From a virus, in the IMG/VR virus record IMGVR_UViG_3300048834_000258, positions 9,568 to 73,567 of that record: 64,000 nt of DNA; one strand, given 5' to 3'. This document shows positions 10,642-54,280 of this stretch, piece by piece. How positions within the stretch are numbered: the stretch's first letter is position 1; the number at the start of each line of letters is the position of its first letter. The position numbers and the translations under genes are program-made. The notes under the pieces were generated by a model. That model saw nothing but the letters and a program-made list of their open reading frames with translations, was not told where the DNA came from and searched no databases.

Positions 10642-10709
10642 AAAACGCACAAAGGGCGGCACAATGGCCGCCTCTCTGTGTTTTGGTGGTCTACAACCAG
10701 TGTAGCATA
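10642..10709 (-). ncRNA. Promoter + short RNA unit E1
   Basis: Minus strand: TATGCTACACT GGTTGT AGACCACC...CACAGAG-A-GGCGGC CATTGT GCCGCC-CTTTGTG CGTTTT. Confidence 0.6.
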
Positions 10710-10717
10710 GACGCGAG

Positions 10718-11506
10718 CTATTCTTCGACGTAAGTACCTTTCCACCCATAGAAGGTTACTTCTGAGCCGGGAGCCGGAATCGGAAATTTTGGATGTGTCG
10801 GAGATCCAAGGTAATCGGCCACGGCATCATACGGGATACGAATGTATCCCCGCTTGCGCGTGCCGACGATGGCTCGACGCGGTGAGCCGAGCAAACTGAC
10901 ACTTGTCAGGACAGTAAGATCTGCGGTGCTTACAAACACAGAGTCAGCATTTACGCATTGCATTTCCGGCTCAATGAACTGGTTCTCCTTGAGTTTCCCC
11001 TCCGCCCGCAGCTTCGCTTCCAGCGCCGCCGCGTCGGTGATGTCCTCGCCGTACACCTGCTGCCAGTCGTTGAGCTTGTAGGCGTGAATGATTTTGAAGT
11101 TGATGCCATATTCGCCCGTGAAGTCTTGAGACAAAGTCGGTCGCCTGCCTGCGTAATGGATCACAGCAAAGGGCCGTCCCGCAGCAACGTCCCCAAACTT
11201 CGGCTTCCCATACTTCTCCGGGCAGGGGCAGTGCTTCGCCCACACGCTCTCGGGCGTAGCGCCTTCGCCGTACTTTTCCTCGATCTCGGTCAACGCCGGG
11301 GCGAGGATGAGGACAGGGGCATCACAGGGGTAATCGTCGGAAGCGGCAATCACCCGAGGTGCCCACCTCCCTAGCCAATTCTCCCCTTTCTTGGGGGGCC
11401 GAAACGCAATTGCCCGAAAGCCGGTTGGGATCGGTGGGTTGGGGGTTCCGTACTTCTGCTCAACCGTGATCGTTTCCTCAACTTGCACTTTCCAAGGTTC
11501 AAACAT
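10718..11506 (-). CDS. Repeat-domain protein (3 YG...FRxP units), paralog family
   Basis: Lone reverse gene in the late operon with own -10 (TGTTATCCT near 11550) and RBS GAGGAGG; internal repeats QKYG/EKYG/QVYG. Confidence 0.75.
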   Translation of the reverse strand: MFEPWKVQVEETITVEQKYGTPNPPIPTGFRAIAFRPPKKGENWLGRWAPRVIAASDDYPCDAPVLILAPALTEIEEKYGEGATPESVWAKHCPCPEKYGKPKFGDVAAGRPFAVIHYAGRRPTLSQDFTGEYGINFKIIHAYKLNDWQQVYGEDITDAAALEAKLRAEGKLKENQFIEPEMQCVNADSVFVSTADLTVLTSVSLLGSPRRAIVGTRKRGYIRIPYDAVADYLGSPTHPKFPIPAPGSEVTFYGWKGTYVEE

Positions 11507-11596
11507 GAAATCCTCCTCTGGCGCACAGCGCCGATTGACTTACACAGACAGGATAACACGGGTCCACCCGGACTGCAATGGTAAAATAGTAGTAGG

Positions 11597-14011
11597 ATGG
11601 CTGAATACCAAGCTCCGACTTTAGATAAAATTCTAGGTGGTGTGGGCACTGGCGTCGGGCTTGGGACGATGGCCACAACCGCTATGGGGAGTGCTGCGGC
11701 CTCCGGGCTGATGGGCGCAACGATGGCGGGGTTGCTTAGCAACCCGTTTACGGCGGTGGGAGCAGCCCTGCTGCCACTGGCAGCGAAGATGTTTGGTCCG
11801 GGGTCCGATGGACCGAAGATGGTGGGGGCAACCAACTTGGTTGAACCCTACGACAAGCTGCTTACGCAAAGGCGTGATGACTTCCTGAAGAATAGTGCGA
11901 ATGCTACGCCGGAACAGAAATTACGGTTTGCGGCGGAACAAGAAGCTATTATTCAGGATATGTTCTCGAAATTCGAGAAATATAAGGATCAGTTAGGGGA
12001 TATCGGGGCGCGTAGTATTGCTGAACGGCAGGCGGGCGGCAAGCATGACTTCTACAAATACTATGTGACTCCTATTACTGGTGGCGGGCGAGCCGCAGAT
12101 TTCGCGCAGGCGAACGGGTTGCAGATGCCGCAAATCAGCGGCGTAGGCACCCCCGGAGGGGGAGGTCTCAACCTCACCCAGCGAGTAATGGGTGCTCCCG
12201 GAGGGAGCGCGGGTACGGGAATAGGCGGTGCCGCAGGCACCCCGATTTTGAATTTGGGAGGCGGCTCTGCCGCTAATTGGGCTTTACCAGCAGCGGCGGG
12301 AGGTGCGACGATGTTCAGCGGTATTGGTTCGTGGCTCGGAAATCTTTTCGGAAACCAGGGTTTCCAGCAAGCAATGGGCGCTCTTGCGCCCGCAATTACC
12401 GGCATTCTCGGCGGTCTGGGTCAGCGGTCTTCTAACGATTCGGCTAACGAGACTCTCCAGGGCGCAATCGCAGACCTCCTCGGACGCGGCGATGAGTTTG
12501 CCAATTTGTCCGCAGAACAACAGGCACAGGTGGTCCAAGCTGTTCAGCAGATGCTCGGAGCGGGCGGGGCCACCCCGCAGTTCTCCGCTTTGCAGAGTGA
12601 TATCGCTCGCACTGGCAGTTCGATGCCCGCGCTGTTCGGCCAGAACCTTGCGGACCCGCAGGCTATCAACATGCTGCTTCAGAGCATCGCTGATCCTCGG
12701 GCGCAAAGCGCCATGACACAGGGGGCTAACATGGTCGCCTCTGGCGGAATGACTCCTGAACTGGCTCAGTTGTTCCAGACAGCACAGGCGCTCCAGACGG
12801 GCAGTTCTGGCCAACAGATGCAGCTTCAATCGTTGGCAAACGAACTAACCCAAAACGGCGGTACTACGCCCTTCCTCCAAACGCTTATGGGCGCGGGGGC
12901 TAGTGCCCTCGGCACTAGAGGGATGACGCCGGAGATCCAGCAGGCACTCGGCCCGTTTATGTCGCTCTTGCAGAGCGGCGGTAAGAATGCCGAAAATACC
13001 GCGCTGTTTGGGCGCGGCATGGACCTCTTCAACCGGGAAGCCTTGCTTCCTATGTCGAAGGTTATTGGCATCGCTGGTGACCAAGCGGGTAGAGCCGTCC
13101 TCGATCAGTATGAGCAGGTACGGCGCGAAGCGCAGCAGCGTGGCGGTGGCCCTGGAGCCGTGGTTGGCTCGGGGAGTGCCAACGATGCGCGGGCCGAGTT
13201 TGGAGACCGGGCAGCAGCAGCTATTGCGAAGGCACAGCAAGACGCAATGATGGGCCAGCAGGGGCTGCAACTGCAACAGCAGGCGACTGGTGCCGGAGCC
13301 GCAGGCCAAGGGGCTTCACTGATGGCGCAGCTTCTCGGAATGGGCCAGAGCGGCGTATCCAACCTTCTGAGCACAGCCGCAGGGCGCGAAGGCACTCTGG
13401 GCCAGTTGGGAGCCGCAGGTCAGCAGCAGGCCAATGCCCGGACGGGCATGGGTGGAGATTTCCTCAACACCATCATGCAAATTGCCCTGGGCGGCGGACA
13501 GTTGGGAGCCTCTGCTGCGGGACAGCAGACGGGGCGCATTAACGCTGGTGGTAACATTGTGCAAGGCATGGGCCAATTGCAGCAGAGCGGCCTCGATTCG
13601 ATTGTGAAGAATCTGCTGCAAGGTTCGCAGTTGGGGATCCAGCAGGGAACAGCTTTGGGCAATTTGCTCAATACAAACCAGGAGCTTCTGTCTCGGAACG
13701 AGATTGGACGGATGTCCAATATCAATTCGCTGCTTTCGTTGCTAACACAAATGAGCGGGCAGAATTTGAGTACAGCGAGTGGGCTGTATCAGGGTTCGAC
13801 AGGACTACAAACACCGCTGGCAACTGGACAGCGAAACTCGCCTATTAGTGATGCGCTAACGGCTCTTGGACCTGGACTAGCTCAGTGGTTCGGTAATCGG
13901 ATGTCTATTCCTACTGCGAGTACGCCGGGAATTGTACCCACTCCCAATGCAACGGTAGCGCCCTATGTGACATCACTACCTAAACTTCCGGGATTTAATC
14001 CGACTTCGTAG
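11597..14011 (+). CDS. Gly/Ala/Gln-rich DNA ejection (pilot)-like protein
   Basis: 804 aa with hydrophobic Gly-rich N-terminus and Gln-rich helices; promoter TGGTAAAAT at 11579-11587. Confidence 0.65.
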   Translation: MAEYQAPTLDKILGGVGTGVGLGTMATTAMGSAAASGLMGATMAGLLSNPFTAVGAALLPLAAKMFGPGSDGPKMVGATNLVEPYDKLLTQRRDDFLKNSANATPEQKLRFAAEQEAIIQDMFSKFEKYKDQLGDIGARSIAERQAGGKHDFYKYYVTPITGGGRAADFAQANGLQMPQISGVGTPGGGGLNLTQRVMGAPGGSAGTGIGGAAGTPILNLGGGSAANWALPAAAGGATMFSGIGSWLGNLFGNQGFQQAMGALAPAITGILGGLGQRSSNDSANETLQGAIADLLGRGDEFANLSAEQQAQVVQAVQQMLGAGGATPQFSALQSDIARTGSSMPALFGQNLADPQAINMLLQSIADPRAQSAMTQGANMVASGGMTPELAQLFQTAQALQTGSSGQQMQLQSLANELTQNGGTTPFLQTLMGAGASALGTRGMTPEIQQALGPFMSLLQSGGKNAENTALFGRGMDLFNREALLPMSKVIGIAGDQAGRAVLDQYEQVRREAQQRGGGPGAVVGSGSANDARAEFGDRAAAAIAKAQQDAMMGQQGLQLQQQATGAGAAGQGASLMAQLLGMGQSGVSNLLSTAAGREGTLGQLGAAGQQQANARTGMGGDFLNTIMQIALGGGQLGASAAGQQTGRINAGGNIVQGMGQLQQSGLDSIVKNLLQGSQLGIQQGTALGNLLNTNQELLSRNEIGRMSNINSLLSLLTQMSGQNLSTASGLYQGSTGLQTPLATGQRNSPISDALTALGPGLAQWFGNRMSIPTASTPGIVPTPNATVAPYVTSLPKLPGFNPTS

Positions 14012-14019
14012 GAGCTAAT

Positions 14020-15876
14020 ATGGCGTTCAACTTTACACAACTCGCGGAAATGATGAACCCTCAAGCTCCTCAACCTGCGCCTATGGCACAGCAGGCGGCA
14101 GCACAGCAGGCAGCGGCGGAATTGGAGTTCCAGCAAATGCTGGCAAAGATCCGCGAACACCAAGAGGCTCAGCGCCAAGCTCAGTTGGCCGAAACTAGCC
14201 AGCAGTTTGATCCTATTATCGAACGGATGCGTGGTAACGTTGAAACGGCTACGCAGCCGGTTCCGCAGGGAAGCCGTCTCGGCGACTTGGGCGAGATCAT
14301 TGCGAATGCTTTCTATACTGCTAGGTTCAACGAACGGCTGAAGACACCCTACGAGCGCCGACAGGCGGAAGCCGGAACCCGCCAGCAGCAAGAGATGAAC
14401 GCGCTAGCGCAAATGCGGCTGATGATGGAGGGCAAGTCCAAGGCAGAGGATCGAATTTCCCAGTCGTTTGATGACCGCACAAAAGCGGAGATGGACGCAG
14501 CCGCTAAGCTGTGGAAAGCTCGTCAAGACATGGAGAAAGCTGCTCGTGCTGCACAGCAGCGGGACCGAGGTTTGGATATTTCTCAAGCGAGATTAGAAGA
14601 TACTCAGAAGCGCACTGGTATTATGGAAGGTCGTGCTGAGGATGATATTGGCAATCAAGCTGATGTTCTCGTCCAACAGAAGTATCCTCGTTTGAAAAAG
14701 GGATCTGCTGAGTATGTGGCTCGTCATGCGGAGGAGTTTGATGCTATTCGCAGAAATCGCCAAGGCTCTAAAATCCTCTCGCAGCAAACATTCGATGCGG
14801 GCCTAAATCCCGTCATCGACATTATGCGAGTACCTCCGGTGCCTATCTCCGTCACACCAACACAACAGCCGAAGGCCGCAGCCGCTCCTACGAAACAATT
14901 AGGCGGGCAGGCTCGACCCTCGATCCCAGCACCGGCTCCCCCGGCTAATGCGTCTCCGAGACCTCTAGTGTCTGAACGCACGCTACTGTCGGCTTCGGAA
15001 TTACCCAACACAAATAACAAAAGCTGGTGGGTTCGTAGAAACATTACCGACGGAGCGCCAAAAGTCTGGTTCAATTCAGGAAGACGCCACAAAGCACAGT
15101 CGCTTAAAGTAGTGCAAGACCACCAAGCGTTGCTCGATCTCAACAACTCTATGTTGTCGGCGGTCGGGCGTATTGTGGAAAAGGGAGGAGCCGAATATTT
15201 CTCACCGGCCCACCCTCGAAATATTATGGGACTTCTAGCGGCTCCTGTAACTGAACCTGGAGTGGCCGAGGATCTCTACGACCGGGGCTGGAGTATTCTG
15301 AAATCGGTCATGTCTCCAAAAGCAGGAGGCGAGAATTCACTGCCTCCTCAAGTTCGAGATTTGGTGATGGACTTGCGGGAGAATCTCAACAAAGCCATCA
15401 AACTACAGACTGGCGCTGCTGGTTCGTTTCAGGAATACAAACGTATCAGTTTGACGCAACCTGCGGAAAGCGATAGCTTGCACGAGTTAGCTCGAAAGTT
15501 CGTAAAGAATCAAATAGCAGTTTCTTTGAATCTCGGCTTGCTGGATGTATACACTACAGGCAAGGGTCAGTTGTCCGACAAGCAACTAGAATCGTTCCGC
15601 CAATACCATGCCGTTATTGCGGAGAAGATGAGCCAATCATTGGTTAATGGCAACCTTTCTGGGGCTGAATTGGAGGAGGCGTTTAAGCCCGAAACCTTAA
15701 TCGAAGGGGCACTTCTCTACAGTCAAGCCAAAGAACGGGGGCCTGAGTTCGCCGATCAAGTTCTGGCGGATATGGTTCGCGGCATTGAAGCCATTCAGAA
15801 GAAGAAGTCTAATGTCATCGATAGGATGAAAAAAGCCAACACATCTGAAGGTGAGTTCGCGGAGTTCAACAACTAG
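14020..15876 (+). CDS. Internal virion/ejection protein
   Basis: 618 aa, helical; RBS AGGAG; position after the pilot-like gene. Confidence 0.6.
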   Translation: MAFNFTQLAEMMNPQAPQPAPMAQQAAAQQAAAELEFQQMLAKIREHQEAQRQAQLAETSQQFDPIIERMRGNVETATQPVPQGSRLGDLGEIIANAFYTARFNERLKTPYERRQAEAGTRQQQEMNALAQMRLMMEGKSKAEDRISQSFDDRTKAEMDAAAKLWKARQDMEKAARAAQQRDRGLDISQARLEDTQKRTGIMEGRAEDDIGNQADVLVQQKYPRLKKGSAEYVARHAEEFDAIRRNRQGSKILSQQTFDAGLNPVIDIMRVPPVPISVTPTQQPKAAAAPTKQLGGQARPSIPAPAPPANASPRPLVSERTLLSASELPNTNNKSWWVRRNITDGAPKVWFNSGRRHKAQSLKVVQDHQALLDLNNSMLSAVGRIVEKGGAEYFSPAHPRNIMGLLAAPVTEPGVAEDLYDRGWSILKSVMSPKAGGENSLPPQVRDLVMDLRENLNKAIKLQTGAAGSFQEYKRISLTQPAESDSLHELARKFVKNQIAVSLNLGLLDVYTTGKGQLSDKQLESFRQYHAVIAEKMSQSLVNGNLSGAELEEAFKPETLIEGALLYSQAKERGPEFADQVLADMVRGIEAIQKKKSNVIDRMKKANTSEGEFAEFNN

Positions 15877-15885
15877 GAGTAATCT

Positions 15886-18303
15886 ATGCCCATCATTGGC
15901 GGCGGTATTGTTTCGGAGCAAAAAGCGCAAGAGCGTGAAGAGAAATTTCGCCGGTTTCAGCAACAACTGAAACTATACAAGACCATGCCGCCCGAAGCCC
16001 GCAAGGAATTCCTCGTCAAAAAGATGGGAATGTCGGAATTGGCCGAGGTTTCTCCCGAAGAGGCGGCTTTGAAATTCGACGAGATTTACGCCAAGAAAGC
16101 GGACGCTCCAGGACCGGATCTTACTGCTAATCCTATGTGGATGATTTCTGGAACTGACCCAGTTAGCCCCGGAACTGCCGCAACCCGCCTAGGTCTAGGC
16201 ACAGCGGGAGCCGCTGCTACTGCTTTTTTGCCAGGTCCCTTTAAGGGGGCTGGGATGTCTCTGCTAGCTTCGGCCCCTTTTACTTCTCCAGATTCCGCAC
16301 CGGCTGATGTAGCAAGTGCTGCCGTCAATGCTATCCCAGCGGGACGCGGCGGCTTTATTATGCAAACCCTCAAAAATATGTTTCTGGGCGGGGCCGAGGG
16401 AGTTGCCCGTAAAGCCTTTGGGGATGAACAGGCCAGTCCTGCCCTTCAAGCGGGACTAGGTGCTGCGTCAGGGCTAGCCCAAGGTACTGTGCCGTGGATG
16501 GCTCGCGCCATTCCGGGCAAGGGACGAGAGATGGCCGAAGATATACTCTTCCAGTCACGCTCCAAACTTAAGCCTGCTGGAGAAAAAGCTATTCCCCAAA
16601 AAGAAGCTGTGCGTATGCTTACTCAACGACCCGAGTACATGGCACAGGTAGACCAAGCCCTAGGCCAACCGGGCCTCGCCGCTTCCACAGCAGCCCCGGC
16701 TAGCCTTGTTCCCGAAGACGTTCTCAAGTATATGCGAAGTTTGGAGGAAACCGCTAAGGGTAGCGTGCAAGTCGCGCCTTTGCCGAAGCGGCCCACTATC
16801 AAACCCTTCAAGGAAACACCGACCTATAATAGAGGCGTTAGTCCTCTGGCCAAAGGTACCGAAGACGAGGTAGTTGAAGAATTTATTGGAGGTGGGCGTA
16901 TCACACTAGAGCCTGGAACTGCTTCAGTATCTCGTCAGTCCCTTGGAGTCGGCTTTAATCCCGACCTCATGTACACTAGACTTCTGGGGCAAATTACCCA
17001 GAATAAGAAATATGCAGTTGAAGCGCAGGCAGCTTTGCAAGCCTTGGATTACATGAACGACGCAGTATTTGGTGATGCTAAAGGGGCAGACGCTGTATTG
17101 GAAGTAGCCAATAAGCACAAGCTCTTTAGCAATGTGAAAAATTTCCCCTCCCGTGCTTCTATCGATGCCGCTGCGGAAGATTTGGCCGAAGCCTCCAATT
17201 TTGACAAGACTTCAGCCGTTGCCGTACTTGAACACGCTGTTAAGTACGGACGCGGCGAAGGCACGCTCAAAAAGCTGGTGGATAAGGTCGGCAAGGAAAC
17301 CGACCAAGGTATCCGCGCTCTTATTGACGAGACTAAAATGCCGGGGGAGACAGTCGAAACTGTTATTCCGGGGCAAGCACCTAAGTTCGACCTTGCGGAT
17401 AATACCGCGTATGAAATGCGCGTAGCACCTATGCGGCAGCAGGCTGCTCAGCGCACGGAAGAAGCTAATGCCAAAATCGCGGCAGAGAATGCTTTCAAAC
17501 AAGAGCAAGCGCAGGTGGCCAACGCGCGAAACATTGCGCAATTCAAGCAGAAGCTAGAAAAGTTTGACGCAATTCGCCAAACTCGTGAGAGCTTGGGGTT
17601 GCCGGGGATTCTCCCAAAAGGAGATGAACTGGCAAAGCCGATCACCTCGGGAGGAGATTCTCAGGATATTGTTCATTCTCTAGGGAAACTGTTTGAGACG
17701 GTGGAGAAAGAAATTCCCAAAGATCTTCCCCGTACTCGTCAGTTGATGATTCAACAGATGTTGGCAAAGGTTCGAGACGCCAAACTTACTAAGGATATGG
17801 TCAAGCGTCTCAAGCCCCCGGACGGCATTGGGGTACTCCCCGACGACCAGATTGATCCTAAGACCGCAGGGCTTTCTTGGGAATACCTAAAGACGCTGAC
17901 AGGCGAAACCGAAGTTCCTGACAGCCAAGCCACGGCAGCTTTGGGCTTGTCTGCCGTGCTTCGGGACGAACAACTTCTCAACGCAATTGCCCAGGGAGAC
18001 CGAGAGACTGTCTGGCTTAGTACCAAACTGTCGATTATCGGCGTTCGTTTCCGCGAATTGCTCAAAGCCGATCCTTCGGGAGCCGTCGAACGTTACATGA
18101 AAGCCACTCCCGAGCAAATCAAAGCCATGGGCACTCGCCTTAACACAACACTGCCCATGCTTCGTTCCGGGATGCGTGTAGGTGTGGGGGAAATATCTCG
18201 AAGTACAGAAGGCGAAGGCCAACGTCAAACCATTCTGGACACAGTTGCCAAGAAGTTCAAGGGTGCGAAAAATCGGCAGAAGATTGTAGATCGGTTGCCT
18301 TAA
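15886..18303 (+). CDS. Internal virion/ejection protein
   Basis: 805 aa, helical with Gly/Ala hydrophobic segments; last gene of the late block. Confidence 0.6.
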   Translation: MPIIGGGIVSEQKAQEREEKFRRFQQQLKLYKTMPPEARKEFLVKKMGMSELAEVSPEEAALKFDEIYAKKADAPGPDLTANPMWMISGTDPVSPGTAATRLGLGTAGAAATAFLPGPFKGAGMSLLASAPFTSPDSAPADVASAAVNAIPAGRGGFIMQTLKNMFLGGAEGVARKAFGDEQASPALQAGLGAASGLAQGTVPWMARAIPGKGREMAEDILFQSRSKLKPAGEKAIPQKEAVRMLTQRPEYMAQVDQALGQPGLAASTAAPASLVPEDVLKYMRSLEETAKGSVQVAPLPKRPTIKPFKETPTYNRGVSPLAKGTEDEVVEEFIGGGRITLEPGTASVSRQSLGVGFNPDLMYTRLLGQITQNKKYAVEAQAALQALDYMNDAVFGDAKGADAVLEVANKHKLFSNVKNFPSRASIDAAAEDLAEASNFDKTSAVAVLEHAVKYGRGEGTLKKLVDKVGKETDQGIRALIDETKMPGETVETVIPGQAPKFDLADNTAYEMRVAPMRQQAAQRTEEANAKIAAENAFKQEQAQVANARNIAQFKQKLEKFDAIRQTRESLGLPGILPKGDELAKPITSGGDSQDIVHSLGKLFETVEKEIPKDLPRTRQLMIQQMLAKVRDAKLTKDMVKRLKPPDGIGVLPDDQIDPKTAGLSWEYLKTLTGETEVPDSQATAALGLSAVLRDEQLLNAIAQGDRETVWLSTKLSIIGVRFRELLKADPSGAVERYMKATPEQIKAMGTRLNTTLPMLRSGMRVGVGEISRSTEGEGQRQTILDTVAKKFKGAKNRQKIVDRLP

Positions 18304-18304
18304 T

Positions 18305-18382
18305 TGTGGTATGCTTGTTGTAGACACCAACCCCACGAGAGGACAGACGCCGACGCCCGTTGGCTCTGTCCTTTTGTGTTTT
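18305..18382 (+). ncRNA. Promoter + short RNA unit E2
   Basis: TGTGGTATGCT TGTTGT AGACACC...AGGACAGA-C-GCCGACG CC CGTTGGC-TCTGTCCT TTTGTGTTTT. Confidence 0.6.
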
Positions 18383-18410
18383 CTGTGCGTTTTCGATTTG
18401 GGAATAGCGA

Positions 18411-19510: not shown

Positions 19511-19543
19511 AAAACCAGTTTCGCACAGAAAAGCGAAAAATGC

Positions 19544-19612
19544 AAACGAAAAAGGCAGGCCACTTTCGCGGCACTGCCTCTTCCGGGGTTGGTCTACAAC
19601 CAGTATAGCATA
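19544..19612 (-). ncRNA. Promoter + short RNA unit E3
   Basis: TATGCTATACT GGTTGT AGACCAACC...AGGCAG-T-GCCGC GAAA GTGGC-CTGCCT TTTT. Confidence 0.6.
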
Positions 19613-19777
19613 AAAAGCGAACGGCCCTCCGGGTACCAGTCGAAGGGCCGCTCACAAGCGAAATTCTCACAAATTGTATGGTCACCCTAACAACAGGTTA
19701 TAGGGACTTCCTTTCCGGTCCTATCGGACCCTTTGAGATTAGTGCCTTAGCACACTCTCAGAATAACGCCGCAGGGG

Positions 19778-36814: not shown

Positions 36815-36841
36815 AAACGCAGTATAACGCAATCAAAACGC

Positions 36842-36912
36842 AAAAGGAAAACGGCGGAACCGCTCTCACGGAATCCGCCGCTCTCCGGGTGGTTGCACTA
36901 CTATTCTACCAC
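36842..36912 (-). ncRNA. Promoter + short RNA unit E4 (variant)
   Basis: TGGTAGAAT AGTAGT GCAACCACCC...GGCGGA TT CCG TGAGAG CGG T TCCGCC GTTTTCCTTTTGCG. Confidence 0.45.
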
Positions 36913-40609: not shown

Positions 40610-40716
40610 TTGTATTTTGGCGCGTCTAGCGCCAAAATAGTTGTAGACCACCACAGCGGCAGCGGGACCGCCAAGTCCCCTGTCCTGCGGTAAACCGCCC
40701 GCTTCGCGGGTTTGCA
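40610..40716 (+). promoter_or_regulatory. Promoter + structured leader unit E5
   Basis: TTGTAT-17-CAAAAT AGTTGT AGACCACC...GGCAG-C-GGGAC CGCCAA GTCCC-CTGTC; no U-tract, leads into 40735. Confidence 0.6.
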
Positions 40717-40734
40717 AAGCAAACGGAGGTTCCA

Positions 40735-47591: not shown

Positions 47592-47972
47592 ATGCCCGCA
47601 CGCACCAAAAAGACTCCCATCGTACTTGTGTACGATCCCACCGACGAAGGACGCTTTGCTTTCTATGACGAGGGCACTCTCGCTTTCGAAGGCTCTGACG
47701 AAAACAACCACTACTTCGACTTCCTCGCCTTCTGTCAAAAGTTCAACATCCCTTACGAAGAACGCGAGATGCTCGAAGGTCTTGAAGGCGAGGAATTTCC
47801 CCGCAAACTCGAAGATCTGAAGCCGAAGGTTTCCGTTCACGTCGAAATCGATACGTGGGATGAAGCCGAATACCTGAACATCGCGACCGACGATACCGGC
47901 CTCGGTTGGGTCTCCAAAGCCGACGCCATCGAGATCCGCGACCGTCTCGTGGAGGCCCTCGGCAAATGCTAG
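47592..47972 (+). CDS. Acidic hypothetical protein
   Basis: RBS AAGGA. Confidence 0.6.
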   Translation: MPARTKKTPIVLVYDPTDEGRFAFYDEGTLAFEGSDENNHYFDFLAFCQKFNIPYEEREMLEGLEGEEFPRKLEDLKPKVSVHVEIDTWDEAEYLNIATDDTGLGWVSKADAIEIRDRLVEALGKC

Positions 47973-48313
47973 CCACCCGAACCGAACTACCGAACGAGCC
48001 GCGCCGCTGGCGGCTCGTCTCCTCGGCCCGCGCCGAACCGGGACGCGACTTCGCCATCTACATTGACAACTACCTTTACTGCATCGGAGATGCGGGTCTC
48101 GAAGCGATTCTTCTTGAGACGAAGACTCCCTTCATCCCCGAAATGACAGAACGGGAGAAGTTCCCCGAGTTCTTCGAAGATCTCATCCACACAACCGACA
48201 TCGACATCGACTGCCTCGCGACCGACGAAGCGGCTTTTCTGCGCCTCGATGGACGCTATTACACACGCCGCCAAGCGGAGCACATCTACAACGCGCTAAA
48301 AGCGCACTTCTAA
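47966..48313 (+). CDS. Hypothetical protein
   Basis: Overlapping start; RBS GGAGG; similar acidic composition to the upstream gene. Confidence 0.55.
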   Translation: MLATRTELPNEPRRWRLVSSARAEPGRDFAIYIDNYLYCIGDAGLEAILLETKTPFIPEMTEREKFPEFFEDLIHTTDIDIDCLATDEAAFLRLDGRYYTRRQAEHIYNALKAHF

Positions 48314-48392
48314 ACGCACAAAAGGCGGAACCAAAGCCGCTCGGCCTCGGATTCCGCCCTTCGTGTGGTGGGTCTACAACCAGTTTAACATA
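48312..48392 (-). ncRNA. Promoter + short RNA unit E6
   Basis: TATGTTAAACT GGTTGT AGACCCACC CACGAAGGGCGGAAT-C-CGAGGCCG AG CGGCTTTG-GTTCCGCCTTTTGTG CGTTT. Confidence 0.6.
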
Positions 48393-48439: not shown

Positions 48440-48946
48440 TTACAGGCCCGCGAAGTCGCCGTAGGCGCGGCTGTCAGCGCCCGCCTGGGGAGCGCACCAC
48501 AGGACGACGAAGGCACCAGCGCCCTCGGTTTCCGGCGTGGTCCGCGTCACGTCGAAGTCCGCAGTCAACACGGAACCCGCCGCAATCGTGGTTTTGGTCG
48601 CGTCCAGGACGGGCGGGGTAACGCCGGTGCTGGCAGCATTCGCGTAGACAAAGCCCGCGCCCGCAGCCTTGGTGATGGTGCAGGTGGTGGTAAGAATGGA
48701 AGTGCCGGAAGTCGCGGCGTCAGCCCGCTTGTCCACGTCGATAACGACCTGCCAAGCATCGGTGCCGTCAACACCGTTGGTTACGATGCCCGCATTGATG
48801 CCGACAACTTCCACATCAAAGGGGAAGATGCCGCCAGGGACGCCGAGCACGTCAGCGGACAAAGTGCCCGACTGCATAATCACGGGAAAGAGCAGCGCCG
48901 TTCCGGGCGCAGCCGCGTTAGAGAGAAGCAAAACACCATTAGCCAT
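48440..48946 (-). CDS. Virion-type beta protein (capsid decoration-like)
   Basis: Ala/Gly/Thr-rich with TIAAGSVLTADFD; own promoter, RBS AGGAGG and terminator at 48392-48420. Confidence 0.5.
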   Translation of the reverse strand: MANGVLLLSNAAAPGTALLFPVIMQSGTLSADVLGVPGGIFPFDVEVVGINAGIVTNGVDGTDAWQVVIDVDKRADAATSGTSILTTTCTITKAAGAGFVYANAASTGVTPPVLDATKTTIAAGSVLTADFDVTRTTPETEGAGAFVVLWCAPQAGADSRAYGDFAGL

Positions 48947-49042
48947 AGTTTGGCCTCCTAGCTAGAAGTATAAGGATGCGCAATCCTACTATTATTCTAC
49001 CATGTGCTTCGCACGCCATTAACTTTCCATAGTGGAAGGGTA

Positions 49043-49294: not shown

Positions 49295-49657
49295 ATGAGT
49301 GTTTTTGGTGGATGGATCGGCGTGGACCTGGATGGCACACTCGCTGAATATGACGGATGGAAGGGGCCGGAACACATCGGCAAGCCCGTCCCGGCGATGG
49401 CCTTCCGCGTCAAGAAGTGGCTGGCTGAAGGAAAGGACGTGCGGATCTTCACGGCACGAGTGTCGCATGACGGGTCTCCCGCTCGCGTGGCCGATGCAGC
49501 AGATGCTTCTGACGCCATTTCTAGTTGGTGCAAAGAGAACTTCGGCCAACGACTTCCGATTACAAACCAGAAAGACTACGCCATGGTGGAACTGTGGGAC
49601 GACCGCTGCGTGCAGGTTGAACCCAACACCGGCAGAAGGGTGGATGGGAAGTCATGA
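49295..49657 (+). CDS. HAD-superfamily phosphatase
   Basis: GVDLDGTLA, IFTAR, TNQKD, WDDR. Confidence 0.85.
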   Translation: MSVFGGWIGVDLDGTLAEYDGWKGPEHIGKPVPAMAFRVKKWLAEGKDVRIFTARVSHDGSPARVADAADASDAISSWCKENFGQRLPITNQKDYAMVELWDDRCVQVEPNTGRRVDGKS

Positions 49658-50079
49658 GTGAACCGTTCAAGATGACGCCGGAAGAGATCAAGCAGGCGGA
49701 GGATATGTATGTCAACAGCGGGCCTTTCGGCTCACTGACGCAGGTGTTCAACAAATTCCCGCGAATCTACGCATTCAGGCCCTACCGAGAGGGAGAGGAA
49801 GTGGTTACGCTGGACCGGACTTCGCTTGTTGTGAACCATAGTGGTGGTGACAGACCGCACTTCATCCTCCGCCCGCGCAAGAAGGTCACCGTGACCGACT
49901 ACGTGTTTCGCGATACGGGGGAGACGCGGCTCCCAGACTACGGAGAGTGGTTTCGTTCTGGTGGGATGCTTGGCCTCGAAGATTATTTCCTGCAAGCGAT
50001 GCCGGGAAATCTCTACACCAAACGCGAACGGATCTACACCCGCGAGGAGATCACCCGCGAAATCGAGGTGGAGGAATGA
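49654..50079 (+). CDS. Repeat-domain protein, divergent member of the FRxP..GE family
   Basis: YAFRPYREGE...PHFILRPRKK and GETRLPDYGEWF; ends in VEE like its paralogs. Confidence 0.6.
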   Translation: MSEPFKMTPEEIKQAEDMYVNSGPFGSLTQVFNKFPRIYAFRPYREGEEVVTLDRTSLVVNHSGGDRPHFILRPRKKVTVTDYVFRDTGETRLPDYGEWFRSGGMLGLEDYFLQAMPGNLYTKRERIYTREEITREIEVEE

Positions 50080-50106: not shown

Positions 50107-50194
50107 TTGACAGATTTACCGCGAAGCGGTAAATTAGTAGTGGACCCTCCTCACGAGAGACGCCGCGATGCTTGCATCCGGCGTTTTTCGTTTT
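50107..50194 (+). ncRNA. Promoter + short RNA unit E7 (variant)
   Basis: TTGACA-17-TAAATT AGTAGT GGACCC...GACGCCG-C-GATGC TT GCATC-CGGCGTT TTTCGTTTT. Confidence 0.55.
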
Positions 50195-50231
50195 AGTTGA
50201 AATGATAAAATAGTCATAGGAGGCGTGTCCT

Positions 50232-50642
50232 ATGGCATTTACCTTTGTTAATGATGGGGAGCGAGTTGCCCTCGAACTTTTGCTCAACAAAACCGGGTCG
50301 TTGGCTAATACAGTTATGGGCCTGTACACCAACAACCAGTCGATCTCTAACGCGGTTGTTTTAGGCGACTTGACCGAGGCGACTGGCAGCGGCTATAGCG
50401 CGATTACCCTTACGGGAGCCAGTTGGACGATTACCGAGGGCGCTCCTACCAGCGCGGCTTTTCCCCAGCAGACCTTCACTTTCAGTGGAGCCATCGGTCC
50501 CATTTACGGCTACTTCATTAAGCATGGGACCACTTTGATCGGGCTTGAGGCTTTTTCGGCTGGCCCCTATACATACACGTCAGCCGGTGGTACCCTAAAG
50601 GTGACGGTCAATTTGACCGCAGGATCTTCAACCAACGACTAG
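50232..50642 (+). CDS. Virion structural protein (tail-fiber-associated)
   Basis: GLYTNN...LTEATGSGYSAITL...W...QTFTF...IYGYF motif common in phage tail modules. Confidence 0.7.
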   Translation: MAFTFVNDGERVALELLLNKTGSLANTVMGLYTNNQSISNAVVLGDLTEATGSGYSAITLTGASWTITEGAPTSAAFPQQTFTFSGAIGPIYGYFIKHGTTLIGLEAFSAGPYTYTSAGGTLKVTVNLTAGSSTND

Positions 50643-50649
50643 GAGACGC

Positions 50650-51030
50650 ATGAGACACACCTTCTTCCTTCTCTGGGCCGTCCTTTTGACGGCCCTTCTT
50701 TTGCCCGCGCAGACCGCACAGCGCAAGGTGACCCTTAATTGGGATCACCCAGACGCGAACGTCACGTTCAACGCCTACATTTCTCCTGGAGATTGCCTGA
50801 CGACTCCGACGTTTGTGAAGCACAACACCGCGCCCATCACGGCGAAGACCTATGAGATTACGGGGCTTGCCGAGGGCACGTACTGTTTCGCGGTGCGAGC
50901 CGAGCGGGACACGCTGGAGTCTGGAAACAGTAACTTGGCCAGTGCCATTGTTGGCCCGCCGCCCGTCGTTCCTGGCGCTCCGACCGGGCTTAGCTTGAGC
51001 GTGTCGGTGACGGTAACCGTTAACCCCTAA
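50650..51030 (+). CDS. FN3-domain protein with signal peptide
   Basis: Hydrophobic N-terminus; VTLNW...YCFAVRA...ESGNSN...PGAPTGL. Confidence 0.75.
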   Translation: MRHTFFLLWAVLLTALLLPAQTAQRKVTLNWDHPDANVTFNAYISPGDCLTTPTFVKHNTAPITAKTYEITGLAEGTYCFAVRAERDTLESGNSNLASAIVGPPPVVPGAPTGLSLSVSVTVTVNP

Positions 51031-52631
51031 TGCGCGTACTGATCGCTCTCTTGTGGGTGGCACTGGCGTTCGCGCAGCCGGTGCCGCCTACTAACCTTCG
51101 GGCGTCTACCAAACCCATGGCCACTTTCGTACAAGGCGCAGTTCCCACATCGGCGGCAGATCCGATCAGTTGCACGTTCTCTTCGGCTCCGACCGAGGGA
51201 AATCTGCTGATTGCGGCGATGTCCGAGCGGAGCGGGAATAGCACGACAAACCACACCATCAGTGGAAGCGGCTGGACAAAGCGGGTGGGGCGTGATGTGT
51301 CGCTACCATCGGGCGACAATAGACGCACCCTCACGATCTGGACGAAAGTAGCGGGAGCCTCAGAGCCGTCTACCATCACAATGGATGATGGCGGGTCCGG
51401 TACATCAAAAAACGGTTTCGTCGCAGAGTACGCGCTGGAGAGCGGCGAAGACACCTGGGAATTTCTGGAAGCCGTATCAAACGACAACGGGGAAACCGAT
51501 AACGCCACGAGTCTAGCCACCGGGACCACATCGTCGTTGTCTGGCACGCAGATGGTGGTGTTTGGCGTTGGATCGATGAAGGCGGCGAGCGGCGCTCCAT
51601 CGGGCCATACCTGGGCGTCCGCGACGTTGACTGCTAATGTCAGTTCCTACCCGAGTGGCTTGGGCAGCTACGGGATGTGGCTCGGCATCGCGTCCGCGAA
51701 CAGTGATAGCGCGGGGACGAAAGCCTCCACGATGACGATGGGTGGCGGCCCGTCGAATGACGGGCTTACCGCTGCGATCCTGGTTTTCAATTTGGTGAGT
51801 GGCGGAGGTGGCGACGATTACACCCACTCTGGTACCGGAGCTTTAGCCCTTTCTGGTTCCAATACCACAGTTCTAGACACCATTGTAAGCTCTTCTGGCA
51901 ACCTAGCCGTTTCGGGCACTACCGGGATTGTGCTAGAGGCCATTGTCACCACTTCGGGGGCATTGACATTTACGGGGAGTCACGCTGCGGTCCTTGAAGC
52001 CATCGCAGCCGTTTCCGGCAACTTGACGCTATCTGGTAGTGCGGCTGTTGCACCTGATTGGGTAGTTAGTAGCTCCGGTGGTTTTCTATTAGGCGGCACG
52101 GGAGAACCTGTGCCCGGCTTCGATCTACTGGGAACCGGGGCGCTTTCCCTGGGCGGCTCCGTCAGCGTAGAGTTTACCGAATCTGGCGATATTGTGTACT
52201 CCGGTACTGGCCATCTAGCCCTAGCCGGTGCTGCCTCCATTGTCCTAGACGCGATCACCTCTCAGTCGGGCAACCTCGCTTTAGGAGGCTCGGGCGCTAT
52301 CGCCCCCGACTTCCTCATTGCGGGTACGGGGGCTCTCAGCTTAGCGGGTAGTTCGGCGCTTGTGCCCGAGTTTGTGCTTACGCCCTCGGGCAATTTGGCC
52401 CTAAGTGGCTCGATTGCGACTGAAGCTAACTTTGTCGTGGCGGTTTCGGGCGACCTGGAGTTGGGCGGAACGGCAGTCGTTGCGTATACCGGCCCCGTCT
52501 CTACGCAAGTAGCAACTTCTACAATTGTAGTAGTTCCGTGTGTGGCTACCGTGGTAAAATTAGATCATAGGACTGTTTTACTGCTACAGAAGCCCCGCAC
52601 GGAGGTCTCTTTATGGAAAGACATCACGTAG
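51030..52631 (+). CDS. Tail-fiber-like protein with signal peptide and SGxLxLxG repeats
   Basis: MRVLIALLWVALAFA-Q; about 12 repeats of ~20 aa in the C-terminal half. Confidence 0.65.
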   Translation: MRVLIALLWVALAFAQPVPPTNLRASTKPMATFVQGAVPTSAADPISCTFSSAPTEGNLLIAAMSERSGNSTTNHTISGSGWTKRVGRDVSLPSGDNRRTLTIWTKVAGASEPSTITMDDGGSGTSKNGFVAEYALESGEDTWEFLEAVSNDNGETDNATSLATGTTSSLSGTQMVVFGVGSMKAASGAPSGHTWASATLTANVSSYPSGLGSYGMWLGIASANSDSAGTKASTMTMGGGPSNDGLTAAILVFNLVSGGGGDDYTHSGTGALALSGSNTTVLDTIVSSSGNLAVSGTTGIVLEAIVTTSGALTFTGSHAAVLEAIAAVSGNLTLSGSAAVAPDWVVSSSGGFLLGGTGEPVPGFDLLGTGALSLGGSVSVEFTESGDIVYSGTGHLALAGAASIVLDAITSQSGNLALGGSGAIAPDFLIAGTGALSLAGSSALVPEFVLTPSGNLALSGSIATEANFVVAVSGDLELGGTAVVAYTGPVSTQVATSTIVVVPCVATVVKLDHRTVLLLQKPRTEVSLWKDIT

Positions 52632-52912
52632 TTAAGGATACTAAATGCCGTCTTACCTGCACTTTCTACGACATTTCGAACGCGCTGGCCGATCCTACCA
52701 CAGTGACCTTCTCGATTAAGCTGCCTGCGGGCACGACCACCACATACACCTACGGAACCGATGCGGAGTTGGTGCGGTCTTCGACTGGTGTTTACTACGT
52801 GGATTTCCTGTTTAACGCCAAAGGCGCGTACATTTACCGCTTTCTGGGTGCTGGTTCGGTGGGTGCGCCGGGTGAGGGTACCGTGGACGTTGCCGAGAGT
52901 GCTCTAGCCTAA
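52613..52912 (+). CDS. Small Ig-like virion protein
   Basis: ADPTTVTF...P.G...STGVYYVD...G.Y.YRF. Confidence 0.65.
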   Translation: MERHHVVKDTKCRLTCTFYDISNALADPTTVTFSIKLPAGTTTTYTYGTDAELVRSSTGVYYVDFLFNAKGAYIYRFLGAGSVGAPGEGTVDVAESALA

Positions 52913-52942
52913 ATGCTAAAATAGTCATAGGAGACTGAACCT

Positions 52943-53218
52943 ATGGCCTTTTTGCAGATTTTCGCTTTGATTCCCGTCCTCTGGGAACTTCTGGAGCGCA
53001 TCATCAAGACTGTTGAGACCGAGGAGCTTCCTGGGTCTGAGAAGAAGCAGCTTGCGCTCGACGCGCTCAAATCCCTGGTCGAAGTAGTTGGGTCGATCCC
53101 TGGCGTGAAGGGCAAATTCTCTGCCGACTTTGTGGTCAACCTCGCTATCCCTATCATTGACATTGTTGTTGGCATTTTCAATGCCATCGGCATCTTCCGC
53201 AAGAAACCTGCCGCCTAA
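52943..53218 (+). CDS. Holin-like protein
   Basis: Hydrophobic ends, GSEKKQLA motif, basic C-terminus; upstream of the putative endolysin. Confidence 0.5.
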   Translation: MAFLQIFALIPVLWELLERIIKTVETEELPGSEKKQLALDALKSLVEVVGSIPGVKGKFSADFVVNLAIPIIDIVVGIFNAIGIFRKKPAA

Positions 53219-53240
53219 AGGCAGTGCCGGGACTTCGACC

Positions 53241-53786: not shown

Positions 53787-54000
53787 CGAACATCTCGACC
53801 GAATTTTTACCTACCGCGCCCCTTTCGGGGATCAGCCGGAAAGGTACGTCAAGATTAGGCAAGCCGCCAAAGATTTCGCGCAATTGGTGCAGGATGCGTG
53901 TCCCGAATCTCGGGAGAAATCCACTGCTCTGACAAACATTCAACAGGCGGTGATGTGGGCAAATGCCAGCATCGCCATCAACGAGGAGCAAAGCTCATGA
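53779..54000 (+). CDS. Acb2/Tad1-hairpin-like protein (candidate signalling-nucleotide sponge)
   Basis: FTYRAP...RY..IR...CPESREKSTALTNIQQAVMWANASIA. Confidence 0.65.
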   Translation: MTNEHLDRIFTYRAPFGDQPERYVKIRQAAKDFAQLVQDACPESREKSTALTNIQQAVMWANASIAINEEQSS

Positions 54001-54203
54001 GTAAATTCACTGAATGGTTGGAGGGCGAGGGTGCCAAGATCTTTACGATGAGCGCCCTTTGTCTGGTGTTTTTCGCGGCGGAAGTGGCGATCAAGGTTTG
54101 GGTGCCGGAGAGCGAGCAGCTTCAGGGGCAGATCGGCTCGATTGCCGCTGGCTTTGGCGGAGCGTTGCTCGCGATCCTACGACCTCCGCAGGCGACGAAA
54201 TAA
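53997..54203 (+). CDS. Two-TM holin-like protein
   Basis: Two hydrophobic segments; ATGA coupling. Confidence 0.5.
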   Translation: MSKFTEWLEGEGAKIFTMSALCLVFFAAEVAIKVWVPESEQLQGQIGSIAAGFGGALLAILRPPQATK

Positions 54204-54208
54204 CGGCG

Positions 54209-54280
54209 AAAACTCAAAACCCCAGACGACCGTCCGCATTGCGGAGCGGCCATCCTGGGGTCTACAACTAGTCTAACACA
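54209..54280 (-). ncRNA. Promoter + short RNA unit E8
   Basis: TGTGTTAGACT AGTTGT AGACCCCAG-G-ATGGCCG-C-TCCGC AAT GCGGA-CGGTCGT-CTGGGGTT TT. Confidence 0.6.

Follow-up and report, generated by a model that had tools for sequence, protein, structure and literature searches.

The window analysed here, a 64-kb stretch of DNA (64,000 nucleotides) from an uncultured 73.6-kb phage, contains six exact copies of the 9-mer GTTGTAGAC (10689-10697(-), 18317-18325(+), 19592-19600(-), 40640-40648(+), 48372-48380(-) and 54260-54268(-)), compared with a mean of 0.31 expected from shuffled sequences; six or more copies were reached in none of the 100 shuffles. The whole 73,567-bp record holds seven, the seventh (E0) lying 2.6 kb upstream of the window start. 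With two variant boxes, AGTAGTGCAACC at 36.9 kb (-) and AGTAGTGGACC at 50.1 kb (+), they define nine units. The six intergenic copies and two variants that had been described previously are all present, and E0 makes a ninth unit in the record. All nine units have the same anatomy: promoter, start box, leader, hairpin and a tail that is mostly U-rich. The units of the window and several gene promoters of the same phage that lack a hairpin are as follows.

E1, 10638..10708 (-): extended -10 ATGCTACACT at 10708-10699, box 10697-10689, predicted +1 at 10692; hairpin 10680-10648 (-) with a bulged A and tail CGTTTTGTAGG; situated past the stop of gene 10718-11506(-), with convergent gene 10364-10630(+) ahead.
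E2, 18306..18388 (+): -10 GTGGTATGCT, box 18317-18325, predicted +1 at 18322; hairpin 18334-18378 (+) with a bulged C and tail TTTTCTGTGCGTTT; begins 3 bases past the stop of gene 15886-18303(+), with convergent gene 18551-19252(-) ahead.
E3, 19537..19611 (-): -10 ATGCTATACT, box 19600-19592, predicted +1 at 19595; hairpin 19585-19547 (-) with a bulged U, a GAAA loop and a long U-rich tail; a separate terminator (~19616-19655) upstream, genes 19265-19507 and 18551-19252(-) downstream.
E4, 36836..36912 (-): variant box GTAGTGCAA, -10 GTGGTAGAAT overlapping the stop of gene 36901-37095(-), predicted +1 at 36896; hairpin 36886-36846 (-) with a 2x1 internal loop and tail TTTTGCGTTTTG; then a second promoter (TATACT) and the apparently leaderless start of gene 36317-36814(-).
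E5, 40629..40724 (+): -35 TTGTAT / 17 bp / CAAAAT, box 40640-40648, predicted +1 at 40645; bulged hairpin 40658-40684 (+) without a U tract, plus two further small hairpins; leader of gene 40735-41097(+).
E6, 48308..48391 (-): -10 ATGTTAAACT, box 48380-48372, predicted +1 at 48375; hairpin 48364-48318 (-) with tail GCGTTTAG, its bulge lost in the ortholog of the relative G001; bidirectional terminator of gene 48440-48946(-) upstream; faces convergent gene 47966-48313(+).
E7, 50107..50201 (+): variant box GTAGTGGAC, promoter TTGACA-17-TAAATT, predicted +1 at 50142; hairpin 50153-50191 (+) with a bulged C and tail TTTAGTTG; then a second, extended -10 promoter TGATAAAAT before gene 50232-50642(+).
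E8, 54208..54279 (-): -10 GTGTTAGACT, box 54268-54260, predicted +1 at 54263; hairpin 54262-54218 (-) with two 5' bulges and tail TTGAGTTTTCG; back-to-back with the promoter of gene 54336-54617(+), facing the end of gene 53997-54203(+).
Hairpin-less gene promoter, 11576..11597 (+): TGGTAAAAT-A-GTAGT-AGG, immediately 5' of the ATG of gene 11597-14011.
Other five hairpin-less promoters with the GT/AG frame: ~-2606(+), 1735(+), 3273(+), 22242(-) and 48999(-).

A -10-like hexamer ends one base upstream of the box in all nine units (TAnnnT in eight, CAAAAT in E5), and TG is found at -15/-14 in seven of them, in agreement with the mostly extended -10 promoters of the original prediction. E7 carries TTGACA-17-TAAATT, and in E5 TTGTAT is placed at 17-bp spacing from CAAAAT; a neutral two-hexamer scan recognised only E7 among the eight in-window units, which counts against the preferred reading set out below. 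The predicted +1 is an A or G inside the box (GTTGT|AGAC), and the eight starts given above equal those proposed earlier. The 9-mer straddles this predicted start, with its GTTGT part upstream. The six hairpin-less gene promoters have the frame -10 / N / NNNGT / A, with GTAG in five of the six, and one orthologous gene promoter has GTCAT in one phage where the other has GTTGT. Because the 9-mer straddles the start and shares GT|AG with promoters that have no hairpin, it is largely a DNA-level signal (discriminator/start-site contacts or an operator) and not an RNA motif, which bears out the earlier caveat that part of the conservation may be at promoter level.

In the leader, 52 of 55 bases are C or A, compared with 49% A+C genome-wide, as expected from the short A/C-rich linker noticed before, and the E7 leader includes CCUCCU, an anti-Shine-Dalgarno-like word. 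The hairpins have 15-23 pairs, whereas the ordinary terminators of this phage have perfect cores of 8-13 pairs. An extra 5'-arm base is present in eight of the nine units, 4-8 pairs below the loop (a single bulge in E1, E2, E3, E5, E6, E7 and E8, a 2x1 loop in E4); the exception, E0, has a 1x1 loop, and the 3' arms have no core bulge in any unit. The unpaired 5'-arm base had been claimed for all eight in-window units and was found in each, but the base in E6 is U rather than C and E8 has two bulges, G and C (RNAfold). U-rich tails occur in seven units, and the three that had been assigned TGTGCGTTT are those of E1, E2 and E6; the tail of E0 is weak and E5 has no U tract after its first hairpin. 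An opposite-strand T run is found only at E0 and E1, so the hairpins are not merely bidirectional terminators. As a chance control, the 24-base promoter-plus-box pattern was matched 16 times in unrelated IMG/VR contigs, and at none of these sites was there a comparable hairpin (MFE -3.6 to -18.8 over 80 nt, versus -27 to -48 over 75-85 nt for the units). The Rfam search matched the nine-unit family to no described family.

The relative G001 (82.8% identity over the alignable 62% of the genome) retains all nine units, and the 9-mer is identical at 81 of 81 bases. The RNA bodies are 74-100% identical (100% in E0 and E3), and the sole difference across the -10, box and RNA of E3 is the base preceding the box. 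E5 and E7 are conserved islands of 111 and 119 bp in DNA that is unalignable with G001, and E1 terminates an alignment block. Wherever the leaders of the two phages differ, only C and A are involved. Loops change at about eight times the stem rate. Leaving E8 aside, 11 substitutions fall in loops and 8 in stems without loss of pairing, and 1 breaks the pair that closes a loop. The five upper-stem pairs of E8 all have new bases in both arms, and its bulged C, five pairs below the loop, persists. The bulge is retained in seven of eight orthologous pairs, E8 included, and lost in E6; the stems keep pairing. The metagenome contig L344 carries a shortened E3-to-E2 cassette, with a third copy of E2 and an E3 copy in which one G-to-A change preserves the pair. 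The joint 40724>41083 at E5 was found in contigs of four runs, with short sides. Covariation statistics, based on one full relative and a few fragments, are thin. The hairpin appears to be selected for pairing, mostly for the 5' bulge, and not for sequence.

E1, E2, E6 and E8 face convergent genes, one more (E2) than had been noted, and at three of these four junctions the opposite strand has no U tract; the remaining five run in the same direction as their neighbours. Behind both E4 and E7 lies a second promoter, which had been anticipated for E4. Seven of the nine units are self-contained from promoter to terminator and contain no ORF. Of the earlier proposal, it holds that the units form a real and conserved family; E0 and E5 are predicted to lead the next gene. 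Genes adjoining the units are those that have diverged or been replaced (57%, 53% and 58% identity for 10718, 18551 and 48440, compared with 85-99% for typical neighbour genes), genes 40735, 49654 and 50232-52912 have no hit, and homology breaks and indel joints are located at unit edges. Four paralogous ORFan genes each adjoin a unit; they have no Pfam family at E<=0.01 (three of the four tested), only three relatives among 5.8 billion proteins, a structure model of low confidence (mean pLDDT 65), and nothing that marks RNA binding in Pfam, the protein search or this low-confidence model. Among the best 25 of 37 Pfam and best 25 of 59 PHROG families (94 proteins), no antiterminator or sigma factor was found.

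A promoter running into its own terminator is a design already known from other phages. Two known kinds come closest: in T4-type phages, the promoter-early stem-loop (PeSL) cassettes (Arbiol et al., 2010, PMC2839356; Comeau et al., 2014, PMC4122927), and in Pseudomonas phages, short RNAs that arise by premature termination (Putzeys et al., 2024, PMC10914365). Like PeSLs as outlined in the former accounts, the units are repeated, dispersed, predicted strong sigma-70-type promoters with a stable, putatively terminating stem-loop, are intergenic beside variable ORFan genes, and are kept while flanking genes are inserted, deleted or replaced. However, the PeSL stem-loop as outlined there sits within or next to the promoter, or at the furthest just upstream of the start, and is followed by a Shine-Dalgarno sequence and a gene (PMC2839356), whereas the long hairpin here would be transcribed from its own promoter and has a U tail, with no gene behind it in seven units. 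PeSL stems, in the same accounts, share GGGG..CCCC; the present stems are unrelated. Small palindromes carried by the promoter spacers of this phage are a more PeSL-like feature. In Pseudomonas phages, ONT-cappable-seq mapped 5'UTR premature-termination units and short ncRNA candidates: a terminator directly 3' of a phage promoter, as in our units, yields a predominant short RNA and rarer long transcripts sharing its 5' end, a ~71-nt species of phiKZ was confirmed by northern blot, and about a quarter of transcription units are without an annotated feature (PMC10914365). Those units are described there singly before genes, not as a family with an invariant start box (PMC10914365). Compared with that description, four of the present units face convergent genes.

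The units also resemble the lambdoid PR'-qut-tR' region (6S RNA) and lambda oop, in which a constitutive host-type promoter followed by a terminator gives a short non-coding RNA, as predicted here; oop, too, points into a convergent gene. However, such phages have one unit per genome rather than nine, the present units stay intergenic, unlike oop, which overlaps its target gene at the 3' end, and Q control depends on a Q-binding element, on a pause signal that resembles a -10, and on a Q gene. Bulged-stem hairpins are known from the natural antisense RNAs CopA and RNA-OUT and from the MS2/PP7 coat-protein operators, which share with our units a single-stranded 5' tail, a GC-rich stem with a small loop and, a few pairs beneath it, a bulge, and a total length of 50-90 bases. 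In contrast to these, the loops of the present units are not conserved, and a complementary target transcript is not expected for five units.

Reading promoter activity, start point, termination and role from the observed anatomy, conservation and context, we give an even chance to the nine units being small host-RNA-polymerase transcription units that act as cis punctuation at module joints. They would belong to one promoter subclass specific to the phage lineage. The extended -10 promoter (a -35/-10 promoter in two units) would open, RNA would begin at the A or G within the invariant box, and a 4-9-base C/A leader would be transcribed before the polymerase reaches a hairpin of about twice the length of this phage's ordinary terminators. 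In the lower stem, a purine run (GAGAGG) would pair with the U tract via G-U pairs, so that the hairpin would form on one strand only and stop transcription in one direction. Seven units would give a 50-65-base RNA without a reading frame, while in E0 and E5, with a weak or missing U tract, the head would be a structured leader of the next gene. At gene-block borders beside fast-changing accessory genes, the units would most likely end the transcript of the upstream gene, let through little or none of the transcription that their own promoter starts, and mark conserved joints of module exchange, as PeSL cassettes do.

Punctuation alone leaves unexplained why E3, E4 and E7 keep a strong, perfectly conserved promoter 12 bases before the terminator; there the second promoter together with a terminator would suffice, and the RNA itself as product fits better. 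The 5'-arm bulge (eight of nine units, never on the 3' arm, surviving full upper-stem replacement in E8) argues for more than a terminator, and the doubled hairpin length, different in kind from the ordinary terminators of this phage, points the same way. These features would suit a trans-acting small-RNA family, a reading we consider unlikely, in which 50-65-base RNAs of common shape (C/A 5' leader, 4-8-pair apical stem, 5' bulge, long lower stem, U tail) are the selected product and bind a shape-recognising phage or host protein as sponge, decoy or scaffold, or in which the C-rich leader pairs with purine-rich ribosome-binding sites. Seven units with no ORF to lead keep promoter and terminator, the C/A leader is maintained through substitutions, and each of the four ORFan paralogs adjoins a unit. 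However, loops change fastest and hairpin sequences are unrelated between units, so recognition would be possible by shape only; the E6 ortholog has no bulge, the sole invariant sequence is mostly upstream of the start, a good anti-Shine-Dalgarno word occurs only in E7, and the ORFan paralogs offer few relatives, no Pfam match (three of four tested) and a poor model. The fast loop change argues against loop-specific recognition, and the suggested roles as protein-binding decoy, antitoxin-like RNA or antitermination signal found no support.

It is improbable that the units are promoter-proximal attenuators under antitermination, like lambdoid PR'-tR' released by Q or nut/put-type leaders, whose terminators would silence early promoters until a phage factor at the box or bulged hairpin permits read-through. 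A promoter with a conserved start region and then a terminator is the hallmark design of Q-type control. At -1 to +5, the box TAGAC(C) is loosely similar to a -10 element of the kind that induces sigma-dependent pausing, but it has no T at the last position of the hexamer. The genes behind E0, E5, probably E3 and, in G001, E7 have no other visible promoter, which means that read-through must occur there; since the G001 gene after E7 has no second promoter, the terminator must leak or be overridden, as antitermination predicts. On the other hand, simple leakiness is enough for gene-leading units with weak or absent U tracts, read-through at E1, E2, E6 and E8 would give only antisense RNA to convergent gene ends, E4 and E7 have promoters of their own behind them, and the families examined include no antiterminator or sigma factor. 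We likewise assign a low probability to firing or binding at the DNA, rather than the RNA, being what matters: polymerases started at the units would collide head-on with those from convergent blocks and stop them, or the 9-mer would serve a phage protein as operator or recombination site, the units persisting as module-exchange linkers. The 9-mer is more exact than the -10 hexamers, which come in six different forms; this suggests a specific binding factor and counts against cis punctuation. The four convergent junctions, three without an opposite-strand U tract, and the breaks and joints at unit edges would also fit, and there are published precedents for collision-assisted termination (bioRxiv 10.1101/2022.10.23.513370) and PeSL recombination (PMC2839356). 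Nevertheless, five co-directional units speak against collisions as a general role, the 9-mer is non-palindromic and no candidate binding protein was found, only ~20 bases are common between units, which is little for homologous exchange, and conserved hairpin pairing and C/A leaders are needless for a pure DNA site.

With cis punctuation as the preferred reading, the bulge kept in seven of eight ortholog pairs, including the rebuilt E8, leaves room for a further one, namely that the bulged hairpins may be recognised by shape. The units probably yield non-coding RNAs of 50-65 bases where gene blocks border on each other.

Nine units of one design (E0 to E8), each made of a promoter, a box, a leader and a hairpin, were found in this phage, whose IMG/VR record (73,567 bp, with the window at 9568-73567) is rated complete. 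The original prediction of a family of stand-alone phage sRNAs had counted six copies of GTTGTAGAC and two variants (E4 and E7), and this count was reproduced in the window (0.31 copies expected; none of 100 shuffles reached six). With a seventh copy (E0), found shortly before the window begins, the units number nine:

E0, 2.6 kb before the window start: only visible promoter of the genes behind it; poor terminator
E1, predicted start 10692, minus strand: same-strand gene directly 5'; points into the end of a convergent gene
E2, predicted start 18322, plus strand: same-strand gene directly 5'; points into the end of a convergent gene
E3, predicted start 19595, minus strand: separate terminator in front; precedes genes, possibly with a weak second promoter (TGCGAAACT) behind it
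E4, predicted start 36896, minus strand: variant box; same-strand gene directly 5'; second promoter behind
E5, predicted start 40645, plus strand: only visible promoter of the genes behind it; poor terminator
E6, predicted start 48375, minus strand: same-strand gene directly 5'; separate terminator in front; points into the end of a convergent gene
E7, predicted start 50142, plus strand: variant box; same-strand gene directly 5'; second promoter behind
E8, predicted start 54263, minus strand: points into the end of a convergent gene

In all nine units a -10-like hexamer ends one base 5' of the box. Seven carry an extended -10 TG, and E5 and E7 have instead a -35 hexamer at 17 bp. By the usual promoter spacing, the sixth base of the box is the predicted first base of the RNA, and the eight starts originally proposed within the window are the same positions. 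The leader has 4-9 bases, 52 of 55 being C or A (A+C is 49% genome-wide), and the hairpin, of 15-23 pairs, begins at +2 to +30, 3' of the predicted start. Hairpin sequences have nothing in common between units. In eight of the nine hairpins the 5' arm has an extra base 4-8 pairs below the loop, and in none does the 3' arm of the core have one; these eight are the hairpins to which the original prediction had ascribed an unpaired 5'-arm base, and the exception, E0, has a 1x1 loop. The ordinary terminators of the phage differ from these hairpins in having perfect GC cores of 8-13 pairs and usually tetraloops. A U-rich tail is present in E1-E4 and E6-E8 (the seven tails noticed before), weak in E0 and absent after the first hairpin of E5. 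In these seven units a GC-rich hairpin runs straight into a U-rich tract, which is the anatomy of intrinsic terminators, and they are predicted to act as such.

In the lower stems, GAGAGG-like runs are paired with the U tract through G-U pairs. On the opposite strand these pairs become C-A mismatches, and a T run is found there in E0 and E1 only, which argues that the hairpins are one-way stops and not shared bidirectional terminators, a possibility that the original prediction had named as counting against it. A match to a described family would also have counted against it: an Rfam covariance-model search (gathering score or E<=1) gave no match over the whole window on both strands. Judged from its anatomy, each unit is a putative self-contained transcription unit; seven should yield a predicted non-coding RNA of 50-65 bases, and in two the same head is predicted to be used as an mRNA leader.

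The gene map, obtained with a codon-bias script, agrees with the earlier statement that E1, E6 and E8 face convergent genes (E2 does too) and that E4 precedes a gene with its own promoter. Behind four units there is no gene on the same strand, and in two others a second promoter comes before the gene.

The original prediction had cautioned that part of the conservation might be promoter-level, and this caveat proved well founded. The GTTGT part of the box lies upstream of the predicted start. Six gene promoters without hairpins have the frame of a -10 hexamer, one base, NNNGT and A, with GTAG in five of the six; such promoters drive, among others, the portal gene, the gene that follows the capsid gene, the large block 11597-18303 and gene 48440-48946. 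One hairpin-less promoter has GTCAT in the phage and GTTGT in G001, the one full relative phage. The frame thus appears to be a general start-site feature of the phage's promoters, and the full 9-mer with a TAnACT-type hexamer defines a putative promoter subclass. The 9-mer is more invariant than the adjoining -10 hexamers; such invariance is compatible with strong discriminator and core-recognition contacts, or with a bound regulator.

A late-type promoter class, TGGTAAAAT-A-(G/A)NAGT-AG, was also observed, at window positions 1720-1750, 3260-3290, 11570-11600 and 48985-49010 (minus strand) and at genome position -2620 to -2590 (before the window), with small palindromes (gccgaaggc, ggcgcgtagcgcc) 5' of these promoters. 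Several of them start 0-4 bases 5' of an ATG and would give apparently leaderless mRNAs, for example TAAAATAAAAGTATGG 5' of gene 1747-2373. A further module is repeated at 50200-50236 and 52905-52947, where an extended -10 (TGnTAAAAT) is followed by a hairpin GTCATAGGAG...CCTATGGC that encloses the next gene's Shine-Dalgarno sequence and its start codon.

The relative G001 (61.8 kb; polymerase 86% identical) can be aligned to 62% of the genome, with 82.8% identity. Each of the nine units has an ortholog there, and no further unit is present. The 9-mer is identical in each of the nine pairs and the transcribed bodies are 74-100% identical, E0 and E3 being unchanged, and leader changes are restricted to C and A. 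E5 (111 bp) and E7 (119 bp) are islands between stretches that can no longer be aligned, and the gene behind E7 lacks the second promoter in G001. By pairwise reading, the hairpin changes outside E8 comprise 11 in loops, eight stem changes after which a standard pair still forms and one that opens a loop-closing pair. In E8 all five pairs of the upper stem have different bases on both sides, and its bulged C, five pairs down from the loop, is kept; the E6 ortholog has no bulge. An automatic tally (12 changes keeping pairing, 11 breaking it, 25 unpaired, 7 indels) was inflated by spurious outer helices and a misaligned E8 and was set aside, and in a MAFFT alignment of the 14 sequences other than those of E0 and E5 (18 in all) the unrelated stems were not in register. 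A 1722-bp metagenome contig contains third copies of E2 and E3, which differ only by one change that keeps the pairing and by changes to loops and leaders. These comparisons suggest that selection acts on the start box (at the DNA level), the C/A leader, the stem pairing and largely the 5' bulge, and that loops and stem sequence are not under selection.

The genes adjoining the units are fast-changing. Genes 10718-11506, 18551-19252 and 48440-48946 have 53-58% identity in G001 and genes 40735-41097, 49654-50079 and 50232-52912 are absent from it, whereas most other genes are 85-99% identical; E0, E4 and E8 lie among conserved genes. A joint 40724 -> 41083, at the 3' end of E5, occurs in contigs of relatives from four DNA sequencing runs, with matching sides of just 27-37 letters. 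In a contig of one of these runs the differences listed start only at 36906, with none across E4 and 34 in the next 128 bases, which we regard as no more than a hint. In the 1722-bp contig the distance between E3 and E2 is about 800 bp, compared with about 1280 bp in the phage, so that the size of the cassette between units varies among relatives. Four of the adjoining genes, 10718-11506 (minus), 18551-19252 (minus), 40735-41097 (plus) and 49654-50079 (plus), form an ORFan paralog family with an AFRPP-type N-terminal motif (Y-G..PP.G.R..AFRPP..G..YL..GPRLIL) and a C-terminal VEE. Between relatives these paralogs vary strongly, being 53-57% identical, absent or truncated; the one between E3 and E2 is reduced to its last 59 codons in the short contig. 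A Pfam scan of three of them (all but 49654-50079) gave no match, the 40735-41097 paralog has only three relatives in 5.8 billion proteins, and the structure model is of low confidence (mean pLDDT 65).

Most proteins of the phage are ORFans, and it has no close relative in culture. No DNA match to the phage was found among 50,697 phage records, and its major head (capsid) protein has at most 29% identity to any of them. It encodes a family-A DNA polymerase, a Gad1-like protein (Gabija anti-defence; gene 29008-29943, minus strand, E 1.5e-17) and an Acb2/Tad1-like domain. The Acb2/Tad1 hairpin-domain match (7e-20) was seen, together with pentapeptide, TPR, ParA-like and IS66_C/'transposase' matches, for the 94 proteins among the best 25 of 37 Pfam and best 25 of 59 PHROG families. 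At the left end, before the window, a 711-aa protein (genome 190-2325) shares 70% identity with the C-terminal 700 residues of a 1168-aa protein encoded near the right end (window 57043-60549); both of these fibre-like paralogs are only about 35% identical to their own counterparts in G001. An AT-rich run of TATAG-like repeats (GTATAGGTATAACTATAGTAGTATATAGTATATAGC) at 40217-40262, kept in G001, heads a long minus-strand block and could have a role in regulation or as an origin.

We searched for the units in other genomes. A 24-base promoter-plus-box pattern gave 19 stretches in IMG/VR, of which 16 were in unrelated contigs, all 16 without a comparable hairpin; the E0-bearing loci were absent from these 19 stretches, which is unexplained. 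Scans with 14- and 15-base patterns gave chance matches, in one set none with promoter context among the matches listed. Among the 112 IMG/VR pattern matches listed, a hairpin was present only in those from G001 and three E0-bearing fragments. Because the matches in unrelated contigs lack the hairpin, the composite appears confined to this phage, its one full relative and a few E0-bearing fragments. The motif family is missing from seven loci whose polymerases are distantly related (31-34% identity); two isolated regex matches occur there, neither with a hairpin. A metagenome scan yielded two short contigs, and relatives occur at freshwater and wastewater sites. A search of genome contigs with the capsid protein found nothing, and in the literature searches neither the box nor a family of such design in a relative of the phage was found.

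Several known elements were considered and rejected. In Cas12a-type solitary repeats a repeat hairpin stands upstream of the GTAGA(T) end, in all copies and in the transcript. The units have no conserved repeat hairpin and their predicted start is inside the box; the bases 5' of it are varying -10 hexamers, which pair with GTAG over four base pairs in E1 and E3 only. A CRISPR solitary repeat or RNA anti-CRISPR was thus dismissed. A one-mismatch copy of the box (GTTGTAGAT) was noticed at 48284-48292 (minus strand), 80 bases 3' of E6, past a second small hairpin and within the convergent gene 47966-48313. Its nine letters match the 3' end of Cas12a-type CRISPR repeats, which we judged a coincidence. 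REP/IS200-type elements have a GTAG foot; they were rejected because the hairpins of the units are unrelated to one another and the units have a promoter and a U tail. A Chi-like GGTGG occurs on the opposite strand in three units with no polarity, the LUZ24-type phage nick consensus does not match, the motif is not palindromic as in parS-type sites, and no tRNA or tmRNA was found.

The units resemble the PeSL (promoter-early stem-loop) cassettes of T4-type phages, which are composite promoter/stem-loop motifs flanking exchangeable ORFans (PMC2839356; PMC4122927). In the units, too, a stable stem-loop accompanies a sigma-70-like promoter, in nine intergenic copies. However, their hairpin is downstream of the predicted start, whereas the PeSL stem-loop lies inside the promoter, overlaps it, precedes it or sits just ahead of the start, and a Shine-Dalgarno sequence with a start codon comes after it (PMC2839356). 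The units also resemble the promoter-proximal terminators of an ONT-cappable-seq report (PMC10914365), where terminators directly after phage promoters give abundant short RNAs whose role is unknown.

By anatomy and context, the units fit cis-acting punctuation at module borders, and we propose that they would act in this way. Antitermination control would suit some of them, but not all nine. A Q-type late promoter unit (PR'-qut-tR') has a -10-like pause element within the first transcribed bases, a Q-binding element and a Q gene in the phage. In the present units the TAGAC(C) at -1 to +5 has no final T of such a pause element, and no antiterminator is present among the best 25 of 37 Pfam and best 25 of 59 PHROG families matched by the 94 proteins. 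A role in head-on collision likewise fits some units and not all nine. Punctuation leaves unexplained that a promoter persists at places where a terminator by itself would be enough; for this reason we still allow a small chance that the RNA itself is the product. Slightly less probable again is that nine short RNAs of one conserved shape and unrelated stems are bound by a shape-reading protein. Such RNAs would share a 5' tail of C and A only, a small apical stem, one bulge on the 5' arm, a long G-U-rich lower stem and a U tail. The binder could be the AFRPP ORFan paralogs beside four units; an RNA chaperone or a nuclease of the host is another candidate. If this were true, the units would form a multi-copy system of RNA decoys or scaffolds, a type as yet undescribed in phages.

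Promoter-plus-terminator units that encode nothing now appear in phage transcriptomes (PMC10914365). The present family offers a clean case, with nine copies, an invariant start box, a biased leader and a distinct hairpin type kept while neighbouring genes turn over, and it would thus allow a direct test between RNA products, punctuation and module-exchange joints. If the units are only punctuation, the finding would be ordinary, yet it would help promoter and terminator annotation in an uncultured phage lineage that appears to use extended -10 promoters and, apparently, leaderless starts.
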